Shown piece by piece: positions 1 through 40,279 of a stretch of 49,311 bases of DNA; position 1 is the stretch's first letter, and the number at the start of each line of letters is the position of its first letter. The DNA lies in NCBI GenBank assembly GCA_038883855.1, contig JAVZLH010000007.1, forward strand, positions 1 through 49,311, written 5' to 3'. The notes under the pieces were generated by a model. The model saw nothing but the letters and a program-made list of their open reading frames with translations. It was not told the DNA's origin and did not search any database. The stretch is from Candidatus Bathyarchaeia archaeon (GTDB lineage: Archaea > Thermoproteota > Bathyarchaeia > Bathyarchaeales > Bathycorpusculaceae). A program made the translations under genes and the position numbers.

Positions 1-208
1 CACGGTAAATAACCACGAGGTACTTCGGTCCAATATGGAGGTTGGCGTAAAACTTTAAAGCTTTAAACTCACCCCTCAACCCTTTAATAATTAAATCAGG
101 ATCTTGAACCGCCATAACTATTTCATGTGTGTAACGTGCAACTTCCGGATGCCTACTAACAATATGATTAAGAACTTTTCTGGATATTTTTATGCTCAAT
201 GCTTTCAT
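1..208 (-). CDS. RelE/PBECR-like small nuclease/toxin, truncated by the window edge
   Basis: Not in the ORF track. Manual translation from ATG at 208: MKALSIKISRKVLNHIVSRHPEVARYTHEIVMAVQDPDLIIKGLRGEFKALKFYANLHIGPKYLVVIYR...; the HIxxRHPE...PDLII...KYLVV pattern resembles the BECR/RelE-fold family. Confidence 0.7.
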   Translation of the reverse strand, partial: MKALSIKISRKVLNHIVSRHPEVARYTHEIVMAVQDPDLIIKGLRGEFKALKFYANLHIGPKYLVVIYR

Positions 209-305
209 CTCATATGCTACATTATTTAGGTTGCAATATTTCTAAGCTGCAAGAGGTTATCTGGCTTACGTTATTTAAAAGAGAAATATGAATTTAGCAT
301 TGACT

Positions 306-556
306 TTTGTAAAATTTAAATGGTCAAACTAATCCCGGCGTCTCGTGTTAGACCATTGACTTGAAAAAGGCAAGTTTCTTACTCTGTTTTTGCGAAGCCG
401 CTGCCTAAAAGTTGCTTTGGAGTTGCTCAAAAATGTGGGGCCGGTTAGATGAAAACTTACGTTTAAATTTTAAAATTTTAAGATGACCTATTTTCTCTTT
501 CGCGCAACATGCGCGTGATAAATGAGAACCTGTTGGGGTTGCCATTTTATCTTAAT
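306..556. repeat. Junction repeat copy A (tRNA-Trp trailer + att-like core + arm)
   Basis: Aligns by eye over ~250 bp with 1479-1730 and over its first ~140 bp with 3909-4046; contains the core AAAATGTGGGGCCGG ending at 444. Confidence 0.9.
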
Positions 557-771
557 AGAACTGTTATAGGCTTCGTTCCTTCATAGACTATTGTGTATAT
601 CTGGAAGTGGTTTGGTTTTCCGTGCTCGCTTATCCACTCGCCATATCTTACTTGTCCTTCAAGCCATTCTTTGCTTGCAAAGCTTCTATGCTCCCTTATC
701 CATCTGACTGGTTGGGAACCAAGCTTTATTGGACCGAGGTAGCATCGTTTTCTTGGCTCAAATCGGAACAT
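547..771 (-). CDS. Small hypothetical protein (possible cassette cargo)
   Basis: 74-aa ORF divergent from the wHTH gene, with its stop at the edge of repeat A; no motif recognised. Confidence 0.3.
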   Translation of the reverse strand: MFRFEPRKRCYLGPIKLGSQPVRWIREHRSFASKEWLEGQVRYGEWISEHGKPNHFQIYTIVYEGTKPITVLLR

Positions 772-895
772 AGATACTATTTAGCAAGGCTTATGGTATT
801 TTTGTTTAATGGTATAGCCTTTTGGAATATTCCAAAAACTTAAATATCCCTACAACAACATAGAGAGTGAGAGACAGAGAGACTGTGAGTAAATT

Positions 896-1474
896 ATGAT
901 TGAAATAGTGGAGATAAGAAAGAACCGAAGAGGCGAAGAGTCAGACGAAATCTTACTGGAAACTATAAAGCAGTTTCCAGGGCTTTCTCAATATGAATTG
1001 GGGAAAAAGTTGGGGTGGAAGACTGGCCGTGTTGATGGTTCAATAAGGAGGCTTTTGAACGAAGGGAAAATTGTAATTAAAGTTTTGGAAAGAAATGGTA
1101 GACGAGTAAACCTTGTTTATCCAAAGGAGGAAAAACCTAGAGGCGTAATAGAAGTATCAGCCGAACTACTAGAAGCAGCCAACCTACTACAAGCAGCCAA
1201 CCCCGCATGGAATGAATACGCTTACGTTTACGCATTAGACAGTTCAACAATAGGAATTTCTGGCAGCGAAATGCCAGAATGGAAGGAAATCTCTTGTTTT
1301 CTTGAAAAAACTCCGATACAAAAAGCTGACAACAAAATATTGCTGAAAATTCCAGAAAGGTTTTGGCGATTCTACAACATGGAAAGAAAACATAGCGTAG
1401 TATCAATAAACGGAAATAATATCTTAATAACTGTCGCAGGAAATATCATTGAAGAAAAAAGATATCCAGCCTAA
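896..1474 (+). CDS. Winged-helix DNA-binding protein with possible AbrB-like C-terminal region
   Basis: ILETIKQFPGLSQYELGKKLGW...VDGSIRRLLNEGKI is a typical wHTH; the C-terminal KILLKIPERFWRFYNM...VSINGNNILI resembles a swapped hairpin (inference). Confidence 0.75.
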   Translation: MIEIVEIRKNRRGEESDEILLETIKQFPGLSQYELGKKLGWKTGRVDGSIRRLLNEGKIVIKVLERNGRRVNLVYPKEEKPRGVIEVSAELLEAANLLQAANPAWNEYAYVYALDSSTIGISGSEMPEWKEISCFLEKTPIQKADNKILLKIPERFWRFYNMERKHSVVSINGNNILITVAGNIIEEKRYPA

Positions 1475-1478
1475 CCTG

Positions 1479-1730
1479 TTTGTAAAATTTAAACAGCCAA
1501 ACTATTTCTTGGTTCCTTGTATTGATTGCCGAATTGAAAAAGGCAAGCTTTTTGCTCCATTTTTGCGAAGCCGCTGCCTAAAAGTTGCTTTGAAATTGCT
1601 TGAAAATGTGGGGCCGGATAGATGGAAACTTACGTTTAAATCTTACAATTTTAAGATAACCTATTTTCTCTTTCGCACAACATGCGCATGATAAACGAGA
1701 ATTTGTTGGGGGTTACCATTATATCTTAAT
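1479..1730. repeat. Junction repeat copy B
   Basis: Runs TTTGTAAAATTTAAA...GCGAAGCCGCTGCCTAAAAGTTGCTTTG...AAAATGTGGGGCCGG (core ends 1617)...TATCTTAAT and is homologous to 306-556. Confidence 0.9.
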
Positions 1731-1789
1731 TAGATTTTGGAAATAATGCACCAATAAAAATTTTAACCTCAAACAGCCCAACTCTACTT

Positions 1790-2926
1790 TTATACAAATT
1801 TCCTGGCGCATGAGACTTCAATTTTTTCTAGTATTGGGTAAAGTTCTTCTATGGTCTTGGCAGCTTCTTCGATAATATTGTTAAGTATTTGTGGGAATTC
1901 TTCCGAGTTTCTATCAATGACCCTACCTATGAGAAATTTGTTTGCTGTCAAAGGCTTTCCTTCTAACAGTTTTGTTTCTCTGATGGCTTCTTCGATTTTC
2001 TGCTTTCCGGTCATGTCAATCTCAAAGTACCATTCTAGTGGCCTAGTATTCCTAATGTGATAATACCAAAATGTGTCATAGAAAATATATCTTTGGCTGC
2101 TAATCCTAAGAGACTTCAACTCCTCTTTCAGTTCCTCTTTCAAGAGCAGTTCATAATATTTTTCTCTGTGAAGGTGAGCTTTATTTCCAAAATCTAATCC
2201 TATCCTTATGTTGATTGGGGTAAAAGCAATTCCTAGGCTTGCTCTATGTATATGTGCTCTTTTGTTGGGTATTTTTTCTTTTACCCATGGCAGCCATATT
2301 CCCCCTGAATTAGGAATGAAACTTGATATTTGCTCGGGTTTCAAACCTAGTTTGCCTGTAATCAGTCTGTTTATCTCACGCTGCAATGCAGCACATTTTT
2401 TGTACAACATTATAAAATTGTCAAAATCAGAATCATAAATACCCCTAAACTCTTCAACGCTTATAGTTGAACCTTTTCCAAAAGTCGATATATCTTCAAA
2501 TGTTGTGCGTCGAAGTTGTTCATCAAAGTCTATCCCTGCTTCTTCACATAAGAACCTTAGAATCTCTTTAGTTACAAGATCTATTTGCTCTTTGCTCATT
2601 GAAGAGCGTGTATGCATTATAGCGTTACGAAAATCCCAATATCGTCTTAGCTTTTTTGCTTTTGCTTTGTCTATTTGCTCCTTTTCTTCTAAGAAATTGA
2701 TGATGTCAGAAATTTTTACATCTCTTGGGTTAATGTTCCGGAATTTTTCAAATTTCAGTCCAGTTTGAAACATTACTCTCTCGAAGGATAACGCAGCAAG
2801 ATATTTCACTAGATCCTCAAATCCACTTACGTAACCCCTGAAATTGAATAATGCAAGCGAATACATGAGCATGTTTTCTGTATCTTGGTCGAACTTAAAC
2901 AGGGGCATAACTACACACCGTTCCAT
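1790..2926 (-). CDS. HEPN-motif protein with uncharacterised C-terminal domain (putative defence RNase)
   Basis: 378 aa; helical N-terminal part with an RxxxxH motif (FRNAIMH); AT-rich, located inside the tRNA-linked island. Confidence 0.65.
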   Translation of the reverse strand: MERCVVMPLFKFDQDTENMLMYSLALFNFRGYVSGFEDLVKYLAALSFERVMFQTGLKFEKFRNINPRDVKISDIINFLEEKEQIDKAKAKKLRRYWDFRNAIMHTRSSMSKEQIDLVTKEILRFLCEEAGIDFDEQLRRTTFEDISTFGKGSTISVEEFRGIYDSDFDNFIMLYKKCAALQREINRLITGKLGLKPEQISSFIPNSGGIWLPWVKEKIPNKRAHIHRASLGIAFTPINIRIGLDFGNKAHLHREKYYELLLKEELKEELKSLRISSQRYIFYDTFWYYHIRNTRPLEWYFEIDMTGKQKIEEAIRETKLLEGKPLTANKFLIGRVIDRNSEEFPQILNNIIEEAAKTIEELYPILEKIEVSCARKFV

Positions 2927-3031
2927 ACTGCATTGTTCTCTCTAAAAATTATTCCCTTAGTTTTACTACATAAATCTTCTATTGAGCATTTTACGCATTT
3001 CTTTTTGCTACATAGCTTTGAGCCTATTGCC

Positions 3032-3072
3032 CAATTTAATACTGACTTTCGTAAAATTTAAACGACTAAGTT
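3032..3072. repeat. Partial copy of the junction repeat (distal end only)
   Basis: AATTTAATACTGACTTTCGTAAAATTTAAACG matches AATTTAGCATTGACTTTTGTAAAATTTAAATG near 291-322. Confidence 0.6.
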
Positions 3073-3126
3073 TTTCCTAATCCATAACGGAAAGTCTTAT
3101 CTTTCTGGCAAGAGAAAGAGATATTT

Positions 3127-3219
3127 TTACTTTCTTTTCCTAAAGATTTTGGCGTCGTCCATTTCTGTGACGTATTCGAACCCTGCTTCTATCAGCTGGC
3201 AAGCTTCTTCAAGATTTGT
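3127..3219 (-). pseudogene. C-terminal remnant of a tyrosine integrase
   Basis: Translates as TNLEEACQLIEAGFEYVTEMDDAKIFRKRK*, homologous to the tail of the integrase pseudogene at 39911-40279 (NLKEVCALLEAGF*YATDMEGVKIFRNRK*). It has no start and is preceded by a stop. Confidence 0.8.
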
Positions 3220-3435
3220 TTATCTTTAACGTTTTTAGGTAATATTTGATAATTTTGTTCGTATTGATTATCGTGAGACTAGCGATTAGACATGTTAGAT
3301 GAAGACTTACATTTTAGTTTTTTAAATTTCCGAGATTTCATAAGAAAGACGAATATAACTGAAAAGTGTGGCTCATAAAAATTAATGAGAGATGGATATT
3401 GTTAATTAGGATAAAAAAGACAAACTGGGAATAGT

Positions 3436-3879
3436 ATGATTATCAAATCCTTTGGAGATGAATGGGAATCACTAAAGAAAATTTATGAGAATGGCTCATT
3501 TGAATATAACGATACCTCACACACTTTCAGTTCTCGTGTTGACCTGCACTTCCGAAGTGTTAAGCGACAACAAAAATACGGAGTCTATCTTGTGCGACAA
3601 AGAGATACAGGGGAAATTCTGTATATTGGCAAGAGCGGAACCATTAATTCAAAGGGACAGTTTCTGGGACAAGATATTCCAGACAGATTGAAAAATGTTA
3701 AGGATGGTCGCATTCCAGCAAACCAATGGTTTAAGGATCTTTGCGTGGAGAAAGGACCATTAGTTATCGAATATATTTTTCTTCCCGTTTCTAACTCTCC
3801 TGCGCTGATCGAAGCGATTCTCCTGCAAGCTTACCTTAACGAATACAATCACTTGCCTTACAAGAACAAGAAACTATAA
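3436..3879 (+). CDS. GIY-YIG nuclease family protein
   Basis: YGVYLV...ILYIGKSG motif, downstream conserved R (DRL), E (LIEAILL) and terminal PYKN. Confidence 0.8.
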   Translation: MIIKSFGDEWESLKKIYENGSFEYNDTSHTFSSRVDLHFRSVKRQQKYGVYLVRQRDTGEILYIGKSGTINSKGQFLGQDIPDRLKNVKDGRIPANQWFKDLCVEKGPLVIEYIFLPVSNSPALIEAILLQAYLNEYNHLPYKNKKL

Positions 3880-3908
3880 GGCGGGCACAATAGCGCTTTC
3901 GAATACTA

Positions 3909-4046
3909 TTTGTAAAATTTAAACGGTCAAAGCATTCTCAGTCTTCTAGATCGGATAACTGAATCGAAAAGGCAAGGTTCTTGCCTATTTTTTACAAAAC
4001 TTTTGCCAAAATGTTGCTTTAGAATTGCTTAAAAATGTGGGGCCGG
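3909..4046. repeat. Junction repeat copy abutting and overlapping the tRNA-Trp 3' end
   Basis: Homologous to the first ~140 bp of copies A and B; the last 9 bp (4038-4046) are the tRNA 3' end. Confidence 0.85.
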
Positions 4047-4210
4047 CCGGATTTGAACCGACGACCTTTCCCCGAAACGGCCTTTAAAGGCTGTTTCTAC
4101 GGGTTTCTTCTTTGACCGCTCCAGAACTTCTTCATTCCGCTTTTTGCGGTCCGCAAACCCGTTTATGCGCTTCTGGAGCCCGTCGTCATACCTGCCTAGA
4201 CTACGGCCCC
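4038..4210 (-). tRNA. tRNA-Trp(CCA) with two introns (4105-4172 at 37/38; 4068-4098 at about 43/44)
   Basis: Acceptor GGGGCCG/CGGCCCC, anticodon stem ACGGG/CCCGT, loop CT-CCA-G|A, T arm GTCGG-TTCAAAT-CCGGC. Removing 68 nt and 31 nt gives a 74-nt cloverleaf with variable loop AGGTC. Confidence 0.93.
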
Positions 4211-4382
4211 TTGTCTAGAGTGTTTAAAAATAAACTGCTGTAGAAGAGATATATGCGTTATTCTCCCTTTCAACGAGAAAATTCTCTGTGGGGCTGTTAG
4301 AATAACACTTATTATTTTCTTTTTACACTAAAGAATGGGTAGAACATGGGTTAAAGTATTTATGGTAGATATCTGAGTCAGG

Positions 4383-5498
4383 TTGTGTTTGTTGGAGGTT
4401 TCGGAAACGGCAAGTGAACGTGCTGACACCCCGAAAAGGTTCGTGCTTTACAGAGACTTGGATGGAACAGCTTATGATGTCGAGCTACCCTTAACCTCGA
4501 ACGTTAACCCAGAAGAACTGCGGGAACAGCTTGGTTTGCCATCCTACATCGACTTGAATTATTTTCCGATGCGAAGTGCCATGGTTACTTTTTGGGCTTC
4601 TGCCAACGCGCCTAGACTTCACGAGTTGTATCCGAAAGCCTTTGAAAAAAGGGTTAGTAAGAACCCTATTCCAGCTTTGTTGTTTGGCGGAGCAGCGGTT
4701 AAAATCCATTGTCCAAGCGCGAATTCTAATGGTCCATTGGCTAGGGCGATAAAGGACACGGATTACATTGTTCCTAAAAAGCAGGGAATGGAATTTTACA
4801 AGCTTCTCCTAAACATGGATAAGGCTTTTGGAACGATGTATAAATCCTTTGCGACGGCGAATGATAGGCGTTTCAGCGCTTGGAGGCATGGCGAAAGATA
4901 CAGAGTTACAACAATTAATGGTGTAACAGAGGATGGATTACCTACAATAACTGTTCTAGACATTTTCTGCGACTACATAGATTTGAGGCATAAAGTGGAA
5001 GTTAAGGACGAGTTTGAGAGATACAAAGAAAACCTCTTCACCATCGGCTTGGAGCGTCTGCTTCTTTCTAAAGCACAGTTCATTTTTGACATGCCGAAGG
5101 AATGTGTGAAGGAGCTTGAGCGTTGCAAACAAGAGTATAGGATTCTCTCTTATCCCCATTATGCAAAGGACAAAATCATAATTGGAATGGAGGAAAAAGA
5201 TGTTAAGGACGTTTGCGCAGTCTTTTTAGACCACGAAATTGGAGAGGGCGCAGAAAAGATAAATGCTCGTAAAATGCGAAAGATTTTGGATAAGGATAAG
5301 AAGCTTGCCCTAACTGTTACACTTAATCTTAAAAACATTGTTGAAAAGCCGGATGCCTTCAAAAAGTGGATGACAAAAAGTCAAATCTCAACAGTGATTG
5401 ACAGGGTGGAAAGCCTCTTGAAAGAGTTGCCGGTGATTGACAAGAAATGGGATAAACCATGGTGGAATACTGCTGTGGAAACCCCCGTAATAGAGTGA
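4383..5498 (+). CDS. Uncharacterised Pol-beta-superfamily nucleotidyltransferase
   Basis: FGGAAVKIHC...KDTDY (GG + DxD) and a third Asp in LDIF; paralogous to 9246-10187. Confidence 0.7.
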   Translation: MCLLEVSETASERADTPKRFVLYRDLDGTAYDVELPLTSNVNPEELREQLGLPSYIDLNYFPMRSAMVTFWASANAPRLHELYPKAFEKRVSKNPIPALLFGGAAVKIHCPSANSNGPLARAIKDTDYIVPKKQGMEFYKLLLNMDKAFGTMYKSFATANDRRFSAWRHGERYRVTTINGVTEDGLPTITVLDIFCDYIDLRHKVEVKDEFERYKENLFTIGLERLLLSKAQFIFDMPKECVKELERCKQEYRILSYPHYAKDKIIIGMEEKDVKDVCAVFLDHEIGEGAEKINARKMRKILDKDKKLALTVTLNLKNIVEKPDAFKKWMTKSQISTVIDRVESLLKELPVIDKKWDKPWWNTAVETPVIE

Positions 5499-5502
5499 AA
5501 GC

Positions 5503-6393
5503 TTACTCTCTTTTTACCAGTTGTTTGATGGCGTTGTAAGCTTCCTTCCTTGACATGCCAACTCTTGAAGTGGGCAGGTCGAAGATTCCACATTTGGAGT
5601 GCAGTCTTAAATAAGTTTCCTGTTTGGAGGAGACGTAAATTGTCACATCTTTGTAATCGGACCATTTTCCCTCCGTCACTTTTTGTCCCTGCCGAAGTTG
5701 AAAACCTTTGCTATTCAAGGTTAGGGTTGTATGGTAGCGTGATTTATAAACTCGATGCCCCAATACAAGGGATAAAAGCGTTAAAATCAAGAGTGTTAAT
5801 GGTTGAATCGCTTGTCGCAACCCAGAAAGCGAAATTACTACTAATATTAACACGCCCAGACCAAACACTACAGTGAAGCCCTTTAAGTAGCTGGGAAGGT
5901 CGAATGCTTCAAACTTAGGTTCTGTCAACTTTAGTTGTTTTGCCAGTCCTTTTCCGAGGACATTATCAGATGAAATAGTTTCCTTTGACGAAAGACTGAA
6001 AGCAGTTATACCAATGTTTTTGTCAGTCACGCCTTCAATTGTTTTTTTCAATTCTTTTTCTAAAGGTTTGTTCTGAACCAAACCTAGAAAAACCCAATCG
6101 TCTTCTCCAAACTTGTTTTTAAATGACAAAATGATTTTTCTTAAGAACTTATAGTCAACTTCTTGAGATGCATAAAAGAAAAGGTGAATTTTGTACTTCG
6201 GAGTTACAAGTGCAGAAAATATTTTCGAAAGAAAGAAGCCTTTTTCTTGGAGACTTCCAGAAGCATATATTGGAAAGGTTACATCACCTAAGGTATAGTC
6301 CTTGTGGATCTCGTTAAAATTAGCTAACCATCTTAAATTTCCACGAATTATCTGTTCTTCCACCATGTCCGTTACGAAGCCCAGCTCATACAT
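5503..6393 (-). CDS. Hypothetical membrane protein (soluble N-domain, 2 TM, beta-rich PH-like tail)
   Basis: 296-aa ORF with two hydrophobic segments, directly downstream of the APC permease on the same strand. Confidence 0.7.
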   Translation of the reverse strand: MYELGFVTDMVEEQIIRGNLRWLANFNEIHKDYTLGDVTFPIYASGSLQEKGFFLSKIFSALVTPKYKIHLFFYASQEVDYKFLRKIILSFKNKFGEDDWVFLGLVQNKPLEKELKKTIEGVTDKNIGITAFSLSSKETISSDNVLGKGLAKQLKLTEPKFEAFDLPSYLKGFTVVFGLGVLILVVISLSGLRQAIQPLTLLILTLLSLVLGHRVYKSRYHTTLTLNSKGFQLRQGQKVTEGKWSDYKDVTIYVSSKQETYLRLHSKCGIFDLPTSRVGMSRKEAYNAIKQLVKRE

Positions 6394-6451
6394 TTGTGAA
6401 GAACCTCATTAGTTTGATGTTTGAGAAATAAAAAGAAGAGGATATTTAAGG

Positions 6452-8149
6452 CTATTCTGGGGGTATGCTCAAGTACAGTGTACGCATGTCAACGCCTCGG
6501 GTCATGTTACGGTACATGAAGCCCACGTAAAGTAGTATTCCGACAATAATGCATCCAAGGAAGCCGGATGCGCTGACTACGTCTGCCGCTTTTGCGCCTG
6601 TGGTGAACAGCGACCATATCCATGGAGACTCTTTTATGAAGATGTACAGACAGAAGGCTCCACCAAGCGTGGCTACGAACCCGAGCAGAACAACAGCTCC
6701 AATCGAATGCTTGACCGCCGCTCTGTCATAAATATCCTTTCTCTCCAACGGGAGCAACATGCATGAAACACAGAACATCGTTAGGAAGAAGGCGTCAAAA
6801 ATATCGGTTCCAACAACACCAGCAAATGCTAGGTAACTTACTGCTCCTGCAGGAAAGTCTGCCTCAGCCATGCATGCAGGAATAGCAAATACAGCAGTAA
6901 TTATTATTGACCAGACCGGCGCATGCCACCTTTCGCTAACATAAGAGAAGGCCTCAGGCATCATTCTGTCAAATGACATGGCAAAGAACGTTCTTGAAGC
7001 GACAAGCAGGAACGGTGGAATGTCATTGGCAACCCATAACATGCCGCCTAAGGCGATCAGCCAAGAAAGCCAATCAAGCCCCATGCCTCTAGCAATGATG
7101 GATGCAAGTCCTGTGCTCCAAGCAGACTGAAACCCTGGTATAGCAGCTTTTACAACATCACGATCAACTGCATAGCTTAGCCAAGAATAGTATTGGAAGA
7201 AGCTCCATTTATGTCCAGCAGGGTCTGTGTATGGCTCAAGGCTCATGGCGGCAATTGCGGAAAGCGAAGAAGCCAACAGATAAACTATCATAATTATCAA
7301 TCCCGAAACCAAGAGAACTAGGGGAAGCTTTTTATTGGCTTCTTTCACCTCGCCAGCCAAAAATGTTGTTGCATACCATCCCATGTAAGCCCAGAAAGCC
7401 CCTCCAAGAGCAAAGGAGAAGGCATCAAAGAAACCAGCAACATTTTCTGAACTGGTCATCCCCGTGGCAATTGCTAAATCCTTAAATGTCGAGGGGGGAG
7501 CACCCAAAACCTGTTCAACTCCGGTTGCAAGTGCATTTGGATTCATTGCTCCGGCTACCCACATGGCAAAGAAGAAAATGGTAATAAATGCCGGTATGTA
7601 GAATAGCACTTCCATCAGTCGCCCATACAGTTTAGTTCCCAGAAGGGCGATGATTGCGAATATCCATACTATCACTAGTCCACCCACGAAAAGCTCAAGT
7701 GCTCCAAAGGTTATTCCTCCGGGTGCCATTGCAATGTTAAAGAATATCATGATTGCCTCGAAAACAGCGACGCCGATCAGCCCATAAGAAAAGGCTTCGG
7801 CGAGGAACATTAGCCATCCTGCTGTGTAACCGATCACCGGATGGATTACTCTTGAGATCGTTACGTATCCGCCTCCCGACCTTGGCATAGCAGCTGCAAC
7901 GTAACCTGCCGCATAACCAGTAATAACCACGATTATACCGCAGACTAGAAAGGCCCAGAACATCGCTGGAAGCCCGAGAGGCATTAAGTCTGTTGGCATT
8001 GGTTTTGGTCCTGTGAATTGGAAGACTCTTTTCTGCCAGCCTAGGCCTATGACATGACTAAGGATTATGATTACACCGAGCGTAAAGCCTATTTCGCGTA
8101 CTAGTCCAGTTGCTTCTCTTGCAAATAATCTTGGTTTACTTGAAGGCAT
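6452..8149 (-). CDS. APC-family amino acid permease
   Basis: LFAREATGLVRE N-terminus, AMPRSGGGY, AGEVK and SRTFFAMSFDR motifs; many TM helices. Confidence 0.92.
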   Translation of the reverse strand: MPSSKPRLFAREATGLVREIGFTLGVIIILSHVIGLGWQKRVFQFTGPKPMPTDLMPLGLPAMFWAFLVCGIIVVITGYAAGYVAAAMPRSGGGYVTISRVIHPVIGYTAGWLMFLAEAFSYGLIGVAVFEAIMIFFNIAMAPGGITFGALELFVGGLVIVWIFAIIALLGTKLYGRLMEVLFYIPAFITIFFFAMWVAGAMNPNALATGVEQVLGAPPSTFKDLAIATGMTSSENVAGFFDAFSFALGGAFWAYMGWYATTFLAGEVKEANKKLPLVLLVSGLIIMIVYLLASSLSAIAAMSLEPYTDPAGHKWSFFQYYSWLSYAVDRDVVKAAIPGFQSAWSTGLASIIARGMGLDWLSWLIALGGMLWVANDIPPFLLVASRTFFAMSFDRMMPEAFSYVSERWHAPVWSIIITAVFAIPACMAEADFPAGAVSYLAFAGVVGTDIFDAFFLTMFCVSCMLLPLERKDIYDRAAVKHSIGAVVLLGFVATLGGAFCLYIFIKESPWIWSLFTTGAKAADVVSASGFLGCIIVGILLYVGFMYRNMTRGVDMRTLYLSIPPE

Positions 8150-39351: not shown

Positions 39352-39464
39352 CTCTTAAGTTTAATTTAAATTATTTCAGATTTACAAAATCACTTATAAA
39401 TATTTAACGTACTCCACAGCAAACACTTTCAACTCCATAAAAAGACTTTAAAATACCTCACAAG

Positions 39465-39549
39465 CGCCGGGAGTGGGATTTGAACCCACGCGACCCCGAA
39501 GGGCCACAGGCTCTCAAGGCCTGCGCGTTATCCACTCCGCCATCCCGGC
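39465..39549 (-). tRNA. tRNA-Ser(TGA)
   Basis: Acceptor GCCGGGA/TCCCGGC, anticodon arm CAGGC-CT-TGA-GA-GCCTG, long variable arm, G discriminator. Confidence 0.96.
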
Positions 39550-39910
39550 CGTTTTCTTTCAGAAATAGGAAGTATTGCTTCTAAAACCTTTTCTTTCAAA
39601 AGGCTTAATTAATTTTAGACAACAAGACCTTTTGCAATTTGAAGAGGAGAGTTTGTTGCTGAAGGAAATTTACAAGAAAATACTTTGATTCCGAATTTTC
39701 AATAGTGACAAGCTTCTTTCGAAGGAAAATTAAGAGTCAAAGCTTGAAACAGAGAAATTGGCGATTTTCACTCCTGTTTAACCAGTTAAAAATGTGGAAA
39801 AATATACCTCTAGCTGCCGAGTTGTAGAGCACCATTTAAGGCTGATTTAGGCTACTCAGCTGAAAAATTTGAGCTTTGCGGTAATTTTGCCGTCGAGTAT
39901 ATAGTTAAAG

Positions 39911-40279
39911 ATGTTAAACAACTTGCCAAAGAACAGCGAATATGTGTCCAATCCACATATCAAAGCATTAAGGACAGCGTTTAGCAAACAAAGGAGAGAA
40001 GCTGCTATAAAAATCAATAACCTAAGGTTGCGAAAAATAACATTTCATACACTCCGTCACTGGAAAGAAGCATGGGACGTCAAAAAAGTTTTAGGACATA
40101 AATCGCTTCAAAGCACAGAGGTGTACATAAACATTGAGCAAGCGACATTCCAAGTCACAAACGACAAATATCATGTCAAAGCTGCTCACAACCTAAAAGA
40201 GGTCTGTGCTCTACTGGAGGCTGGCTTTTAATACGCCACTGACATGGAAGGCGTTAAAATTTTTAGAAATAGGAAGTAG
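39911..40279 (+). pseudogene. Tyrosine integrase pseudogene (C-terminal part)
   Basis: FHTLRH, LGHKS and catalytic Y (TEVY). N-terminus missing, shortened HxxR-LGH spacing, and an internal TAA at 40229-40231 followed by YATDMEGVKIFRNRK*. Confidence 0.85.

Follow-up and report, generated by a model that had tools for sequence, protein, structure and literature searches.

A tandem array of small integrase-less cassettes at the tRNA-Trp gene of a Bathyarchaeia genome

Results

Organization of the tRNA-Trp locus

The window analyzed here is a stretch of 49,311 nucleotides from the genome of a Candidatus Bathyarchaeia archaeon (assembly GCA_038883855.1, contig JAVZLH010000007.1, positions 1 to 49,311), and its first 4046 nucleotides hold several small gene units stacked against the 3′ end of a tRNA-Trp gene (Table 1). 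The tRNA gene was located at 4038–4210 on the minus strand by Rfam (RF00005, 38.7 bits) and by ARAGORN with introns allowed, which returned tRNA-Trp(cca) at c[4037,4210] with an intron of 81 nt; without the intron option the tRNA is missed. Its last 9 nt, TGGGGCCGG (4038–4046), form the last part of a 15-bp core, AAAATGTGGGGCCGG, which occurs in exact copies at 430–444, 1603–1617, and 4032–4046. The AAAATG of the core lies outside the tRNA and belongs to the adjoining arm. A search of the window at up to two mismatches found no core copy beyond these three, and three or more matches were reached in none of 100 shuffles.

Each core sits between conserved flanks, here called the left arm (∼125–130 nt left of the core) and the right arm (35–112 nt right of the core). 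The segment 358–538 is 89% identical to 1531–1711 over 181 nt, and a block is common to all three junctions (365–461, 1538–1634, and 3967–4063; 89% and 74% identity); over a wider span, 300–560 is 84% identical to 1479–1730 and 74% identical to 3909–4046. The right arm extends over 112 nt in the two distal copies. The arm module is bounded by a 15–16-nt inverted word, and conservation ends at identical bases whatever the cargo: on the right just past the word CGTTTAAATTTTACAA, whereas on the left it starts at the inverted copy TTGTAAAATTTAAACG. The left arm of more distant lineages has diverged and is shorter, with CCA forming part of its end. Both arms carry a word that, read from the sequence, resembles a B recognition element and TATA box (BRE/TATA) directed toward the core, and the left arm contains a hairpin followed by a T-run.

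The junction copies are spaced 1173 and 2429 nt apart. Because the first base of the window is also that of its contig, the outermost, third unit is truncated by the assembly. The original prediction, made from this stretch, had described a 15-bp core overlapping the last 9 nt of tRNA-Trp and ending at 444, 1617, and 4046, flanks common to its copies, units of 1173 and 2429 bp, and a third unit running off the window. The core, the flanks, the spacings, and the truncated third unit all stand; the 2429-bp segment as a single unit does not. It is a composite, because an inverted right arm, an integrase remnant, and a core-less right-arm-like start lie inside it: a segment with the 378-aa open reading frame (ORF) is enclosed by two opposed right arms and accompanied by the integrase remnant, and a small unit with the 147-aa ORF follows. 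The remnant (3216–3130) is 72% identical to residues 387–415 of a 415-aa integrase from a relative (G002:C29; tblastn E value of 4e-8 against the window), and the inverted right arm (∼3085–3050) lies directly downstream of it on the same strand. Here and below, G-numbers denote family genomes (332 in all, G000 being that of the window) and L-numbers denote the loci fetched. The stretch 3045–3075 was also considered as the decayed start of a left arm; this assignment was rejected in favor of the inverted right arm. For the end of the left arm as a homologue of the integrase 3′ end we make no claim, the local alignment score being only 21.

Table 1. Features of the array, the tRNA-Trp gene, and its flank (positions in the window).
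Feature	Position	Strand	Remarks
Unit 1 (toxin-antitoxin type), cut by contig start	1–444		5′ part of PBECR2-like toxin gene, then left arm J1 and core
PBECR2-like toxin gene, 5′ part	2–208	−	Pfam PBECR2 E 7.7e-4, below cut-off
Left arm J1 (P′ arm)	300–432	+	Starts at BRE/TATA-like word TTGTAAAATTTAAA; final 75 nt conserved; aligns upstream of the G021 integrase ORF
Vestigial ORF, junction 1	433–486	+	Arm-end ATG, core (436–444 = tRNA 3′ end), 13 further codons, stop
Right arm J1 (P arm, long form)	445–556	+	First ∼35 nt conserved across Bathyarchaeia, including inverted copy of the left arm's terminal word
Cargo ORF, 74 aa	547–771	−	No family match; kept in the wHTH-type unit of relatives (cluster: window and 6 relatives)
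Cargo ORF, 192 aa	896–1474	+	Winged-helix N-terminus; Pfam HTH_24 E 1e-3, below cut-off; cluster: window and 7 relatives
Left arm J2	1474–1605	+	Repeat of J1 arm
Vestigial ORF, junction 2	1606–1659	+	ATG, core 1609–1617, 13 further codons, stop
Right arm J2 (long form)	1618–1730	+	Repeat of J1 right arm
Cargo ORF, 378 aa	1790–2926	−	Weak HepT-like match, Pfam E 4.5e-4, below cut-off; no PADLOC match
Inverted right-arm copy	3050–3085	−	3052–3074 at 91%; degenerate core-like stretch adjoining
Tyrosine integrase remnant, last 29 codons	3130–3216	−	Stop codon 3127–3129; tblastn match
Right-arm-like start of tRNA-proximal unit	3294–3329	+	81% over 36 nt to 444–479; no adjoining core
Cargo ORF, 147 aa	3436–3879	+	No match in Pfam or PADLOC, no meaningful PDB sequence match
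Left arm J4, abuts tRNA	3903–4034	+	74% identical to J1; same arm abuts tRNA-Trp in relatives
tRNA-Trp(CCA), intron 81 nt	4038–4210	−	Rfam, ARAGORN; last 9 nt (4038–4046) = repeated core
Chromosomal flank, tRNA 5′ side	4383–6393		ORFs of 371 aa (+) and 296 aa (−); syntenic; clusters: window and 7 relatives

Occupied and empty integration sites

The tRNA-Trp gene of the window encodes no CCA, and it still scores as a full tRNA with the left arm in place of the encoded CCA and native flank. Five family genomes that lack the arms were probed, and in the four that yielded a tRNA-Trp gene (G280, G010, G072, and G018) an identical 3′ end is followed directly by an encoded CCA and unrelated DNA. Alignment of the empty site of G280 with the occupied site of G274, a member of the same genus, extends on both sides of a clean 709-bp insertion, positions 1–1509 of G280 corresponding to 4272–5738 of G274 and 1500–3171 to 6448–8114. 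Because the two alignments overlap in G280, ∼10 bp are common to both flanks. The comparison of G286 with G280 had the same outcome. Such a pattern marks integration at a specific site, the 3′ end of a tRNA, and it shows that each element entered by site-specific recombination within ∼10 bp matching that end. The element supplies a new tail (CAT plus the T-run), with which the tRNA gene stays functional, and displaces the original CCA end to the far side of the insertion.

In relatives with a single unit, the usual order is native flank, CCA complement, core, right arm, cargo, left arm, and a second core that is the 3′ end of tRNA-Trp. The CCA complement precedes the distal repeat in nearly all cases and the ATG of the arm precedes the proximal one, and the internal junctions, in which left arm, core, and right arm follow one another, are shown to have the form expected for an attP-type attachment (att) site. 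The hallmarks of a tRNA-targeting element are thereby largely present: an intact tRNA whose 3′ end is supplied by the element, an empty site in relatives, and the displaced tRNA 3′ end as a direct repeat, seen as internal copies in the window and as a distal copy with CCA and native flank in relatives. An integrase gene inside the element is absent from the unit ORFs scanned, and the window holds only the 29-residue remnant.

The same arms also occur at other tRNA genes. At tRNA-Tyr(gta) in G247, G002:C6, and G027, a Tyr-type core is found at both ends of the unit; at tRNA-Met(cat) in G279, the proximal core is of Met type and the distal core of Trp type, as expected if the crossover took place at the core's outer edge; and in G306:C17 a tRNA-Pro(ggg) gene is abutted by the left arm. 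The motif at the end of the left arm was found at 25 places in 21 of the 332 genomes, compared with two places for the reversed control. Arrays with full internal junctions are present in G305, G309, and G289, and at least two right arms were found in 6 of 26 metagenome loci.

The arm motifs are found nowhere outside this locus in the window's own genome (1.11 Mb, 85% complete), where the search for further copies was thus negative. In relatives the copies lie beside tRNA 3′ ends or tRNA-like cores only, in the genomes searched, which is not the distribution of a dispersed miniature inverted-repeat transposable element (MITE). The order of cargo varies among relatives rather than being fixed, and the junction flanks variable cargo at tRNA-Trp in relatives and metagenomes, as well as at tRNA-Tyr, -Met, and -Pro.

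Distribution, cargo, and signs of transfer

A first sample gave junction matches in 9 of 60 relatives; across the family they are present in 36 genomes (that of the window included) from 23 of 70 genera. When the right-arm pattern was run over one genome per prokaryote species, 16 loci were recovered, of which 14 carry Bathyarchaeia or Bathyarchaeota in their titles and one is titled ‘uncultured archaeon’; the other is a bacterial chance match with no core. The lineage assumed in the original prediction, Bathyarchaeia, is therefore correct. Among the 26 metagenome loci found by the same pattern, the core lies directly beside the arm in 21, one is ambiguous, and four are chance matches without a core. 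A scan of viral contigs returned one locus with neither core nor arms, likewise a chance match.

Arms, tRNAs, and ORFs were mapped on 20 fetched family loci, and across these and the metagenome contigs examined, the same arms enclose different cargo. Two types recur in several relatives: a wHTH (winged helix-turn-helix) protein of 186–192 aa with an ORF of 74–100 aa (window 445–1617 and seven relatives) and a toxin-antitoxin (TA) type pair of PBECR2-like and DUF2283 genes, which is cut at window 1–444 and occurs in about eight relatives, as a complete unit or, in some of them, partly deleted. Other units carry 144-aa and 94-aa ORFs with a PIN protein (G305); a PLD-like nuclease with HicB-like and HicA proteins and a 152-aa ORF (G247); a DUF7347/ArsR-type wHTH protein of about 320 aa (G289, L090, and L094); or a 549-aa ORF without family (G279). 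The 378-aa ORF with its weak HepT-like match and the 147-aa ORF without family come from the window. Metabolic and transport genes are also represented: a pyruvate-formate-lyase-like enzyme with a radical-SAM activase in a 3.4-kb unit beside tRNA-Trp (L085, L102, and L078), an aldehyde:ferredoxin oxidoreductase with a 4Fe-4S protein (L088), an ABC-2 transporter with a regulator (L106), a PLD-like protein (L096), and a NosD-like protein (L099). Homologues of the 378-aa protein (41–49% identity) are encoded in 38 of the 331 other family genomes, the nearest mostly in a genus without arms, and neither a tRNA nor an arm motif was found near them at the nine loci inspected. A GIY-YIG identity for the 147-aa ORF, suggested by a motif seen by eye, gained no support from Pfam, PADLOC, or PDB and was dropped.

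Units are far more similar across genera than the chromosome around them. The wHTH units of the window, G002, and G354 are 89.0–91.4% identical, whereas the adjacent chromosomal genes are 70.6–72.1% identical; the TA units of G283 and G034 are 96.4% identical next to genes at 76.0%; and window 1–444 and the complete unit in G283 agree at 94.1%, with the flank at 70.4%. The G+C content of the window units is 35–38% compared with 43% in the flank. Judged on these comparisons, the excess of unit over flank identity bears the signs of horizontal transfer.

One TA unit shows a deletion of its own. In L009 (G034:C2, ∼1480–1520), compared with L012, the toxin gene has a deletion reaching from the first word of the left arm to a similar word within the gene itself (…GGCGTAAAA(C/T)TTTAAA…), which looks like recombination between short repeats.

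Origin of the arms and the search for an integrase

No recombinase domain was detected in the unit ORFs (Pfam on the larger ORFs scanned), and two integrases of a same-genus relative, run by tblastn against loci L009–L110, matched only L014. A link between arms and integrases came from another genome, G021. There, a homologue of the conserved 75 nt of the left arm (E value of 4.2e-8 in G021), with a near-perfect 30-nt block up to and including ATG TGGGG, ends in the start codon of a 288-aa ORF. This ORF encodes a tyrosine integrase with 31% identity to residues 137–367 of the G002 enzyme, and its opening ∼25 codons read antisense to the 3′ part of a tRNA, such that the att site lies within the integrase gene. 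Relatives of this integrase are present in 277 of the 332 family genomes. Among the best 29 homologous loci, many ORFs start in or beside tRNA antisense, and some are directly preceded by the C-terminus of another integrase; in L163 and L167, an integrase C-terminus is followed within ∼40 nt by a tRNA-like att site and the start of the next integrase. Adjacent pairs of tyrosine-recombinase genes, often beside tRNA genes, were also noticed at G232:C1:419.5–420.9 kb, G305:C63:5.2–6.6 kb, G283:C1:4.7–6.4 kb, and G232:C8:197.3–198.6 kb.

In the window, the core likewise forms the first codons of an ORF: ATG TGG GGC CGG opens both 17-codon vestigial ORFs (433–486 and 1606–1659), which would be all that the window retains of an att site within an integrase ORF. 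On this sequence evidence, the arms resemble the 5′ part of an integrase gene that contains its own att site, a likeness that would tie the array to elements of the SSV type and to ‘gene capture’. After four further left-arm copies, of tRNA-Pro type, come short degenerate cores and variants resembling the right arm, but no integrases.

The search for a helper integrase centered on the tyrosine recombinase family PF00589. Five arm-positive relatives have between 2 and 26 matches per genome, many beside other tRNAs; no arm motif was found near these integrases in 12 loci (up to 1.5 kb on either side of the match). A search of the window's whole genome gave a single match, a 250-aa tyrosine recombinase on contig C3, and the genes beside tRNA-Trp have no recombinase domain. 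As a helper this enzyme was rejected: its contig is possibly mis-binned, no arm motif lies nearby, and its distribution barely overlaps that of the arms, the gene being present in 27 of the 332 genomes, most of them outside the 36 that bear arms (G000, G289, G021, and G321 are on both lists). The contig itself is unusual in that G000:C3:2–13643 is 98.9% identical over 13.6 kb to G289:C1 (L123), from a different genus, with an identical 250-aa recombinase; this reflects a mobile element shared very recently or else mis-binning of the contig.

Integrase relics also occur at other tRNAs of the same genome. At tRNA-Ala, -Arg, -Gly, and -Pro, C-terminal integrase fragments (G000:C19:5801–6078, C12:29383–29568, C12:15143–15241, and C22:8336–8509) end 30–45 nt away from the tRNA 3′ end. 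Farther along the window, a pseudogene on the plus strand (39893–40276) near tRNA-Ser (39464–39549, minus strand) matches the 415-aa integrase of G002 at 49% identity over 139 residues of its C-terminal part. The pseudogene is interrupted by in-frame stops and a gap, and it was probably left behind by another integrated element. Of the tRNAs in this small genome, many seem to carry such relics.

Neighboring features

Read by eye, the tRNA-Trp intron (window 4080–4170, minus strand) contains an 8-nt stretch, TCTGGAGC (RNA sense), complementary to the anticodon region GCTCCAGA, and a C-box-like word; we take these features to recall the box C/D guide of archaeal pre-tRNA-Trp introns. The 371-aa protein on the 5′ side of the tRNA (4383–5498, plus strand), found beside tRNA-Trp in the window and seven relatives, has no Pfam match and shows by eye a nucleotidyltransferase-like G-G…D-x-D pattern. 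In L012 (G031:C39), a 5S rRNA gene (1093–1212) lies ∼130 nt off the 5′ side of tRNA-Trp, and small spurious ORF clusters beside the tRNA in several relatives may correspond to that gene.

Discussion

The original prediction took the repeats to be att junctions of insertions stacked at the 3′ end of tRNA-Trp, and the empty sites and the 709-bp difference between occupied and empty sites bear this out. Its further observations, that each unit carries different cargo and that no intact recombinase is present, likewise hold: cargo differs between relatives as well as between units, and the Pfam and tblastn searches of the window's units brought up the 29-residue remnant only. We consider it moderately probable that positions 1–4046 are a tandem array of att-only derivatives of SSV-type elements at the tRNA-Trp 3′ end, moved in trans. 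Of each element, only the attachment-site arms are kept, together with one to three cargo genes. An integrase gene with att inside would have supplied its upstream region and start codon as the left arm, its first codons as the core, and the remainder of the continuation as the right arm. Loss of the integrase body would leave att-only cassettes, which a related integrase from elsewhere (a resident element, a plasmid, or a virus) could move in trans, singly or as blocks. Repeated integration into the regenerated site would then build the stack, and homologous recombination between arms, together with decay, would remodel it, the composite at 1618–4046 being perhaps one such product.

Such derivatives would be comparable to the cis-mobilizable elements (CIMEs) of bacteria. 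As described in the available parts of an account of Streptococcus elements of the ICESt1/ICESt3 type, CIMEs have lost their integration and transfer genes and kept attL and attR, and the regenerated site takes up further elements in tandem accretion (PMC5704250). The units here resemble them in keeping arms and cores at both ends while lacking a recombinase, and in standing in tandem by accretion. However, CIMEs are bacterial, derive from conjugative elements, and usually consist of one decayed element beside one functional element, whereas the present units have an archaeal host, span 0.5–3.5 kb with one to three genes, and combine one arm module of ∼180 bp with many cargo types across genera; no functional partner element was found in the arrays examined. 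The likeness to SSV-type integrases (class I, or ‘suicidal’), in which att lies inside the integrase ORF and integration parts the start of the gene from its body (PMC7253208, in the portion consulted), is that in G021 the left-arm ATG opens an integrase ORF starting with tRNA antisense, and that many homologous integrase ORFs begin in or beside tRNA antisense. The units differ from SSV-type elements in having only 17-codon vestiges, a tRNA identity of 9–15 nt rather than about 40–70 nt, and no integrase body, yet they look as if transferred recently.

Several observations weigh against this interpretation. The link between left arm and integrase comes from one locus (G021, with a tRNA-Pro-like att site). 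The first 18 nt of the right arm match a tRNA T-arm at 9 of 18 positions in a fixed register, a likeness that is suggestive and no more, and the vestigial ORFs are closed after 17 codons. An integrase with tRNA-Trp specificity, or one tied to the right arm, was not found, and the one tyrosine-recombinase gene of the window's genome scores 28.7 bits on its possibly mis-binned contig. Several units show decay or have lost parts (G034, G274/G286, and window 3045–3330), a condition that fits fossils and active elements equally. The order of units is possibly chimeric, the arms having exact common runs of ∼33 nt (counted on the arm sequences). Finally, excision was not seen in the public-run data, which consist of contigs, where circle and tandem junctions look alike; four joints in these data (1711 to 560, 217 to 1479, 1650 to 4037, and 2698 to 4032) were rejected as evidence of circles or excision, as they have short sides or can be put down to variant arms of related units.

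The array could instead be a fossil of ‘gene capture’, in which independent integrase-bearing elements arrived in succession, their integrases were split or lost, and immobile debris has since only decayed and recombined. We regard this as possible, though rather unlikely. It accommodates well the integrase remnant at 3130–3216, the decayed junction at 3045–3330, the deleted variants in G034, G274, and G286, and the integrase remnants beside four other tRNAs of the same genome; in addition, SSV-type integrases break their own gene on integration (PMC7253208), and integrase-less integrated archaeal elements are usually ascribed to loss in the sections available of a further account (PMC8371274). 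What it does not predict is that units with unrelated cargo have the same arm boundaries (∼35 nt on the right and ∼125 nt on the left), as independent deletions would not coincide, nor that units are 89–96% identical across genera whose flanking genes are 70–76% identical. The same unit types also occur at different tRNAs, with the tRNA-Tyr's own core at both ends there.

A bolder variant of movement in trans would make the cassettes active partners of the ‘suicidal’ integrases: a left arm placed beside a headless integrase body would rebuild an expressed integrase, which then excises and moves its neighbors. The left arm would carry the promoter, start codon, and first codons that an integrated helper lost on integration, and the junction in G021 may be one such rebuilt integrase gene. 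If so, tRNA 3′ ends in Bathyarchaeia would be integron-like platforms on which single genes, including those for the pyruvate-formate-lyase-like enzyme and the aldehyde:ferredoxin oxidoreductase, are shuffled between genera by a recombinase put together at array junctions only. We judge this version doubtful.

Explanations without repeated site-specific insertion fare worse. A single ancestral insertion followed only by homologous recombination between arm copies, within genomes or between them after DNA uptake, could draw on the long near-identical stretches common to the arms, on the G034 deletion between the first word of the left arm and its counterpart inside the toxin gene, and on the module exchange proposed between tandem archaeal elements (PMC8371274, in the text available); but it leaves unexplained the insertions at three other tRNAs, including tRNA-Tyr with its own core twice, the clean junction between occupied and empty sites, and the first arrival of new cargo between arms, and we hold it to be very unlikely.

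A host regulatory or small-RNA module (promoter, terminator, or small RNA) duplicated beside tRNA-Trp, rather than a mobile-element site, might account for the BRE/TATA-like words of both arms aimed at the core and for the left-arm hairpin with its T-run. The relatives with empty sites speak against it, single-strand folds do not rise above those of shuffles, and a structured small RNA in the left arm was rejected as a candidate: RNAalifold on 18 left arms gave a weak structure (−6.36 kcal/mol, covariation term −0.62; 3 of 14 pairs compensatory in any sequence, the minus strand lying outside the alignment folding), and no Rfam match was found at the arm. We give this explanation very little credence.

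That the stack is an assembly artefact, a strain chimera joined via common repeats, is hardly credible: unitigs from public runs do break at the junctions with alternative neighbors present, and in runs X1 and X4 the sequence runs on from a loose end at 1648 into a TA-type unit, but the junction copies differ by 11–26%, exact pieces of the wHTH unit, the 1612–4051 segment, and the right flank have similar depths of 9–14 in X1, and arrays of the same architecture recur in independent metagenome-assembled genomes (MAGs) and contigs. The composite segment itself is recovered as one unitig over 1612–4051 with no differences in X1, and over 1656–4044 with one difference in X3, a run from another study. 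In X3, this 1656–4044 unitig, with the 378-aa and 147-aa cargo (one difference in 2389 nt), has a depth of 22.4 and an exact flank piece (5078–5368) a depth of 3.2, only a hint, contig depths not being comparable measures, that a second genome of higher abundance may carry the segment as well.

Stacked att-only cassettes moved in trans remain the interpretation we prefer. The original prediction had likened the array to an archaeal integron-type cassette array without classical attC sites, a comparison that does not hold as far as membership goes. Archaeal integrons exist, and integron cassettes, too, stand in arrays at one chromosomal site as units of one to a few genes, every unit having a recombination site of its own, with cargo rich in toxin-antitoxin genes. 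Nevertheless, the array is not an integron, because it has no adjacent intI (by the whole-genome PF00589 search) and no attC-like fold at its junctions, single-stranded DNA folds of both junctions on both strands giving z-scores of −0.16, −0.22, +0.64, and +1.06 relative to shuffles. The units also differ from integron cassettes in using a tRNA 3′ end as the site and double-strand attP-like arms of ∼180 bp.

Tandem islands anchored at RNA genes are known elsewhere. The ssrA islands of Dehalococcoides, so far as the available description goes, have repeats of the 3′ end of the tmRNA (transfer-messenger RNA) gene between stacked variable islands, and the tycheposons of Prochlorococcus are tRNA-anchored tandem islands. 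Both mostly have their own recombinase and are much larger. Closer in host and size are the cryptic integrated elements of Thaumarchaeota, which in the main account are small, lie at tRNA genes with att sites of 8–26 bp, carry wHTH genes, and integrate in tandem; unlike the units here, the smallest one described there, at 2.6 kb, encodes an integrase (PMC6563490). An integrase-less cassette family with common arms was not found in the text of that account, its supplementary tables lying outside the search. Tandem integration as such is known in archaea, according to the same text and another seen in part (PMC8371274, PMC6563490), and a search of the literature accessible as main text, with supplementary files outside it and that on Bathyarchaeia included, found no description of such cassettes.

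Bathyarchaeia are abundant and largely uncultured, and gene exchange among them is poorly known. The tRNA-Trp locus suggests that tiny cassettes of one family are widespread; they carry defense-type and metabolic genes and were found in metagenomes in other lineages also. It represents an archaeal family of att-only mini-cassettes with a common arm module of ∼180 bp, widespread in Bathyarchaeia, whose origin probably lies in integrase elements with att inside the integrase gene. The cassettes seem to pass from genus to genus while encoding no recombinase themselves, and the stack may be a little-known route for single-gene trade among archaea. If mobile, they would be for archaea what CIMEs and integron cassettes are for bacteria, with a recombination site that is compact and well defined, and they would explain why small ‘orphan’ islands of genes lie next to tRNAs in MAGs. 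The sequences of arm, core, and tRNA end would then offer a ready substrate for tests of Bathyarchaeia integrases in vitro.

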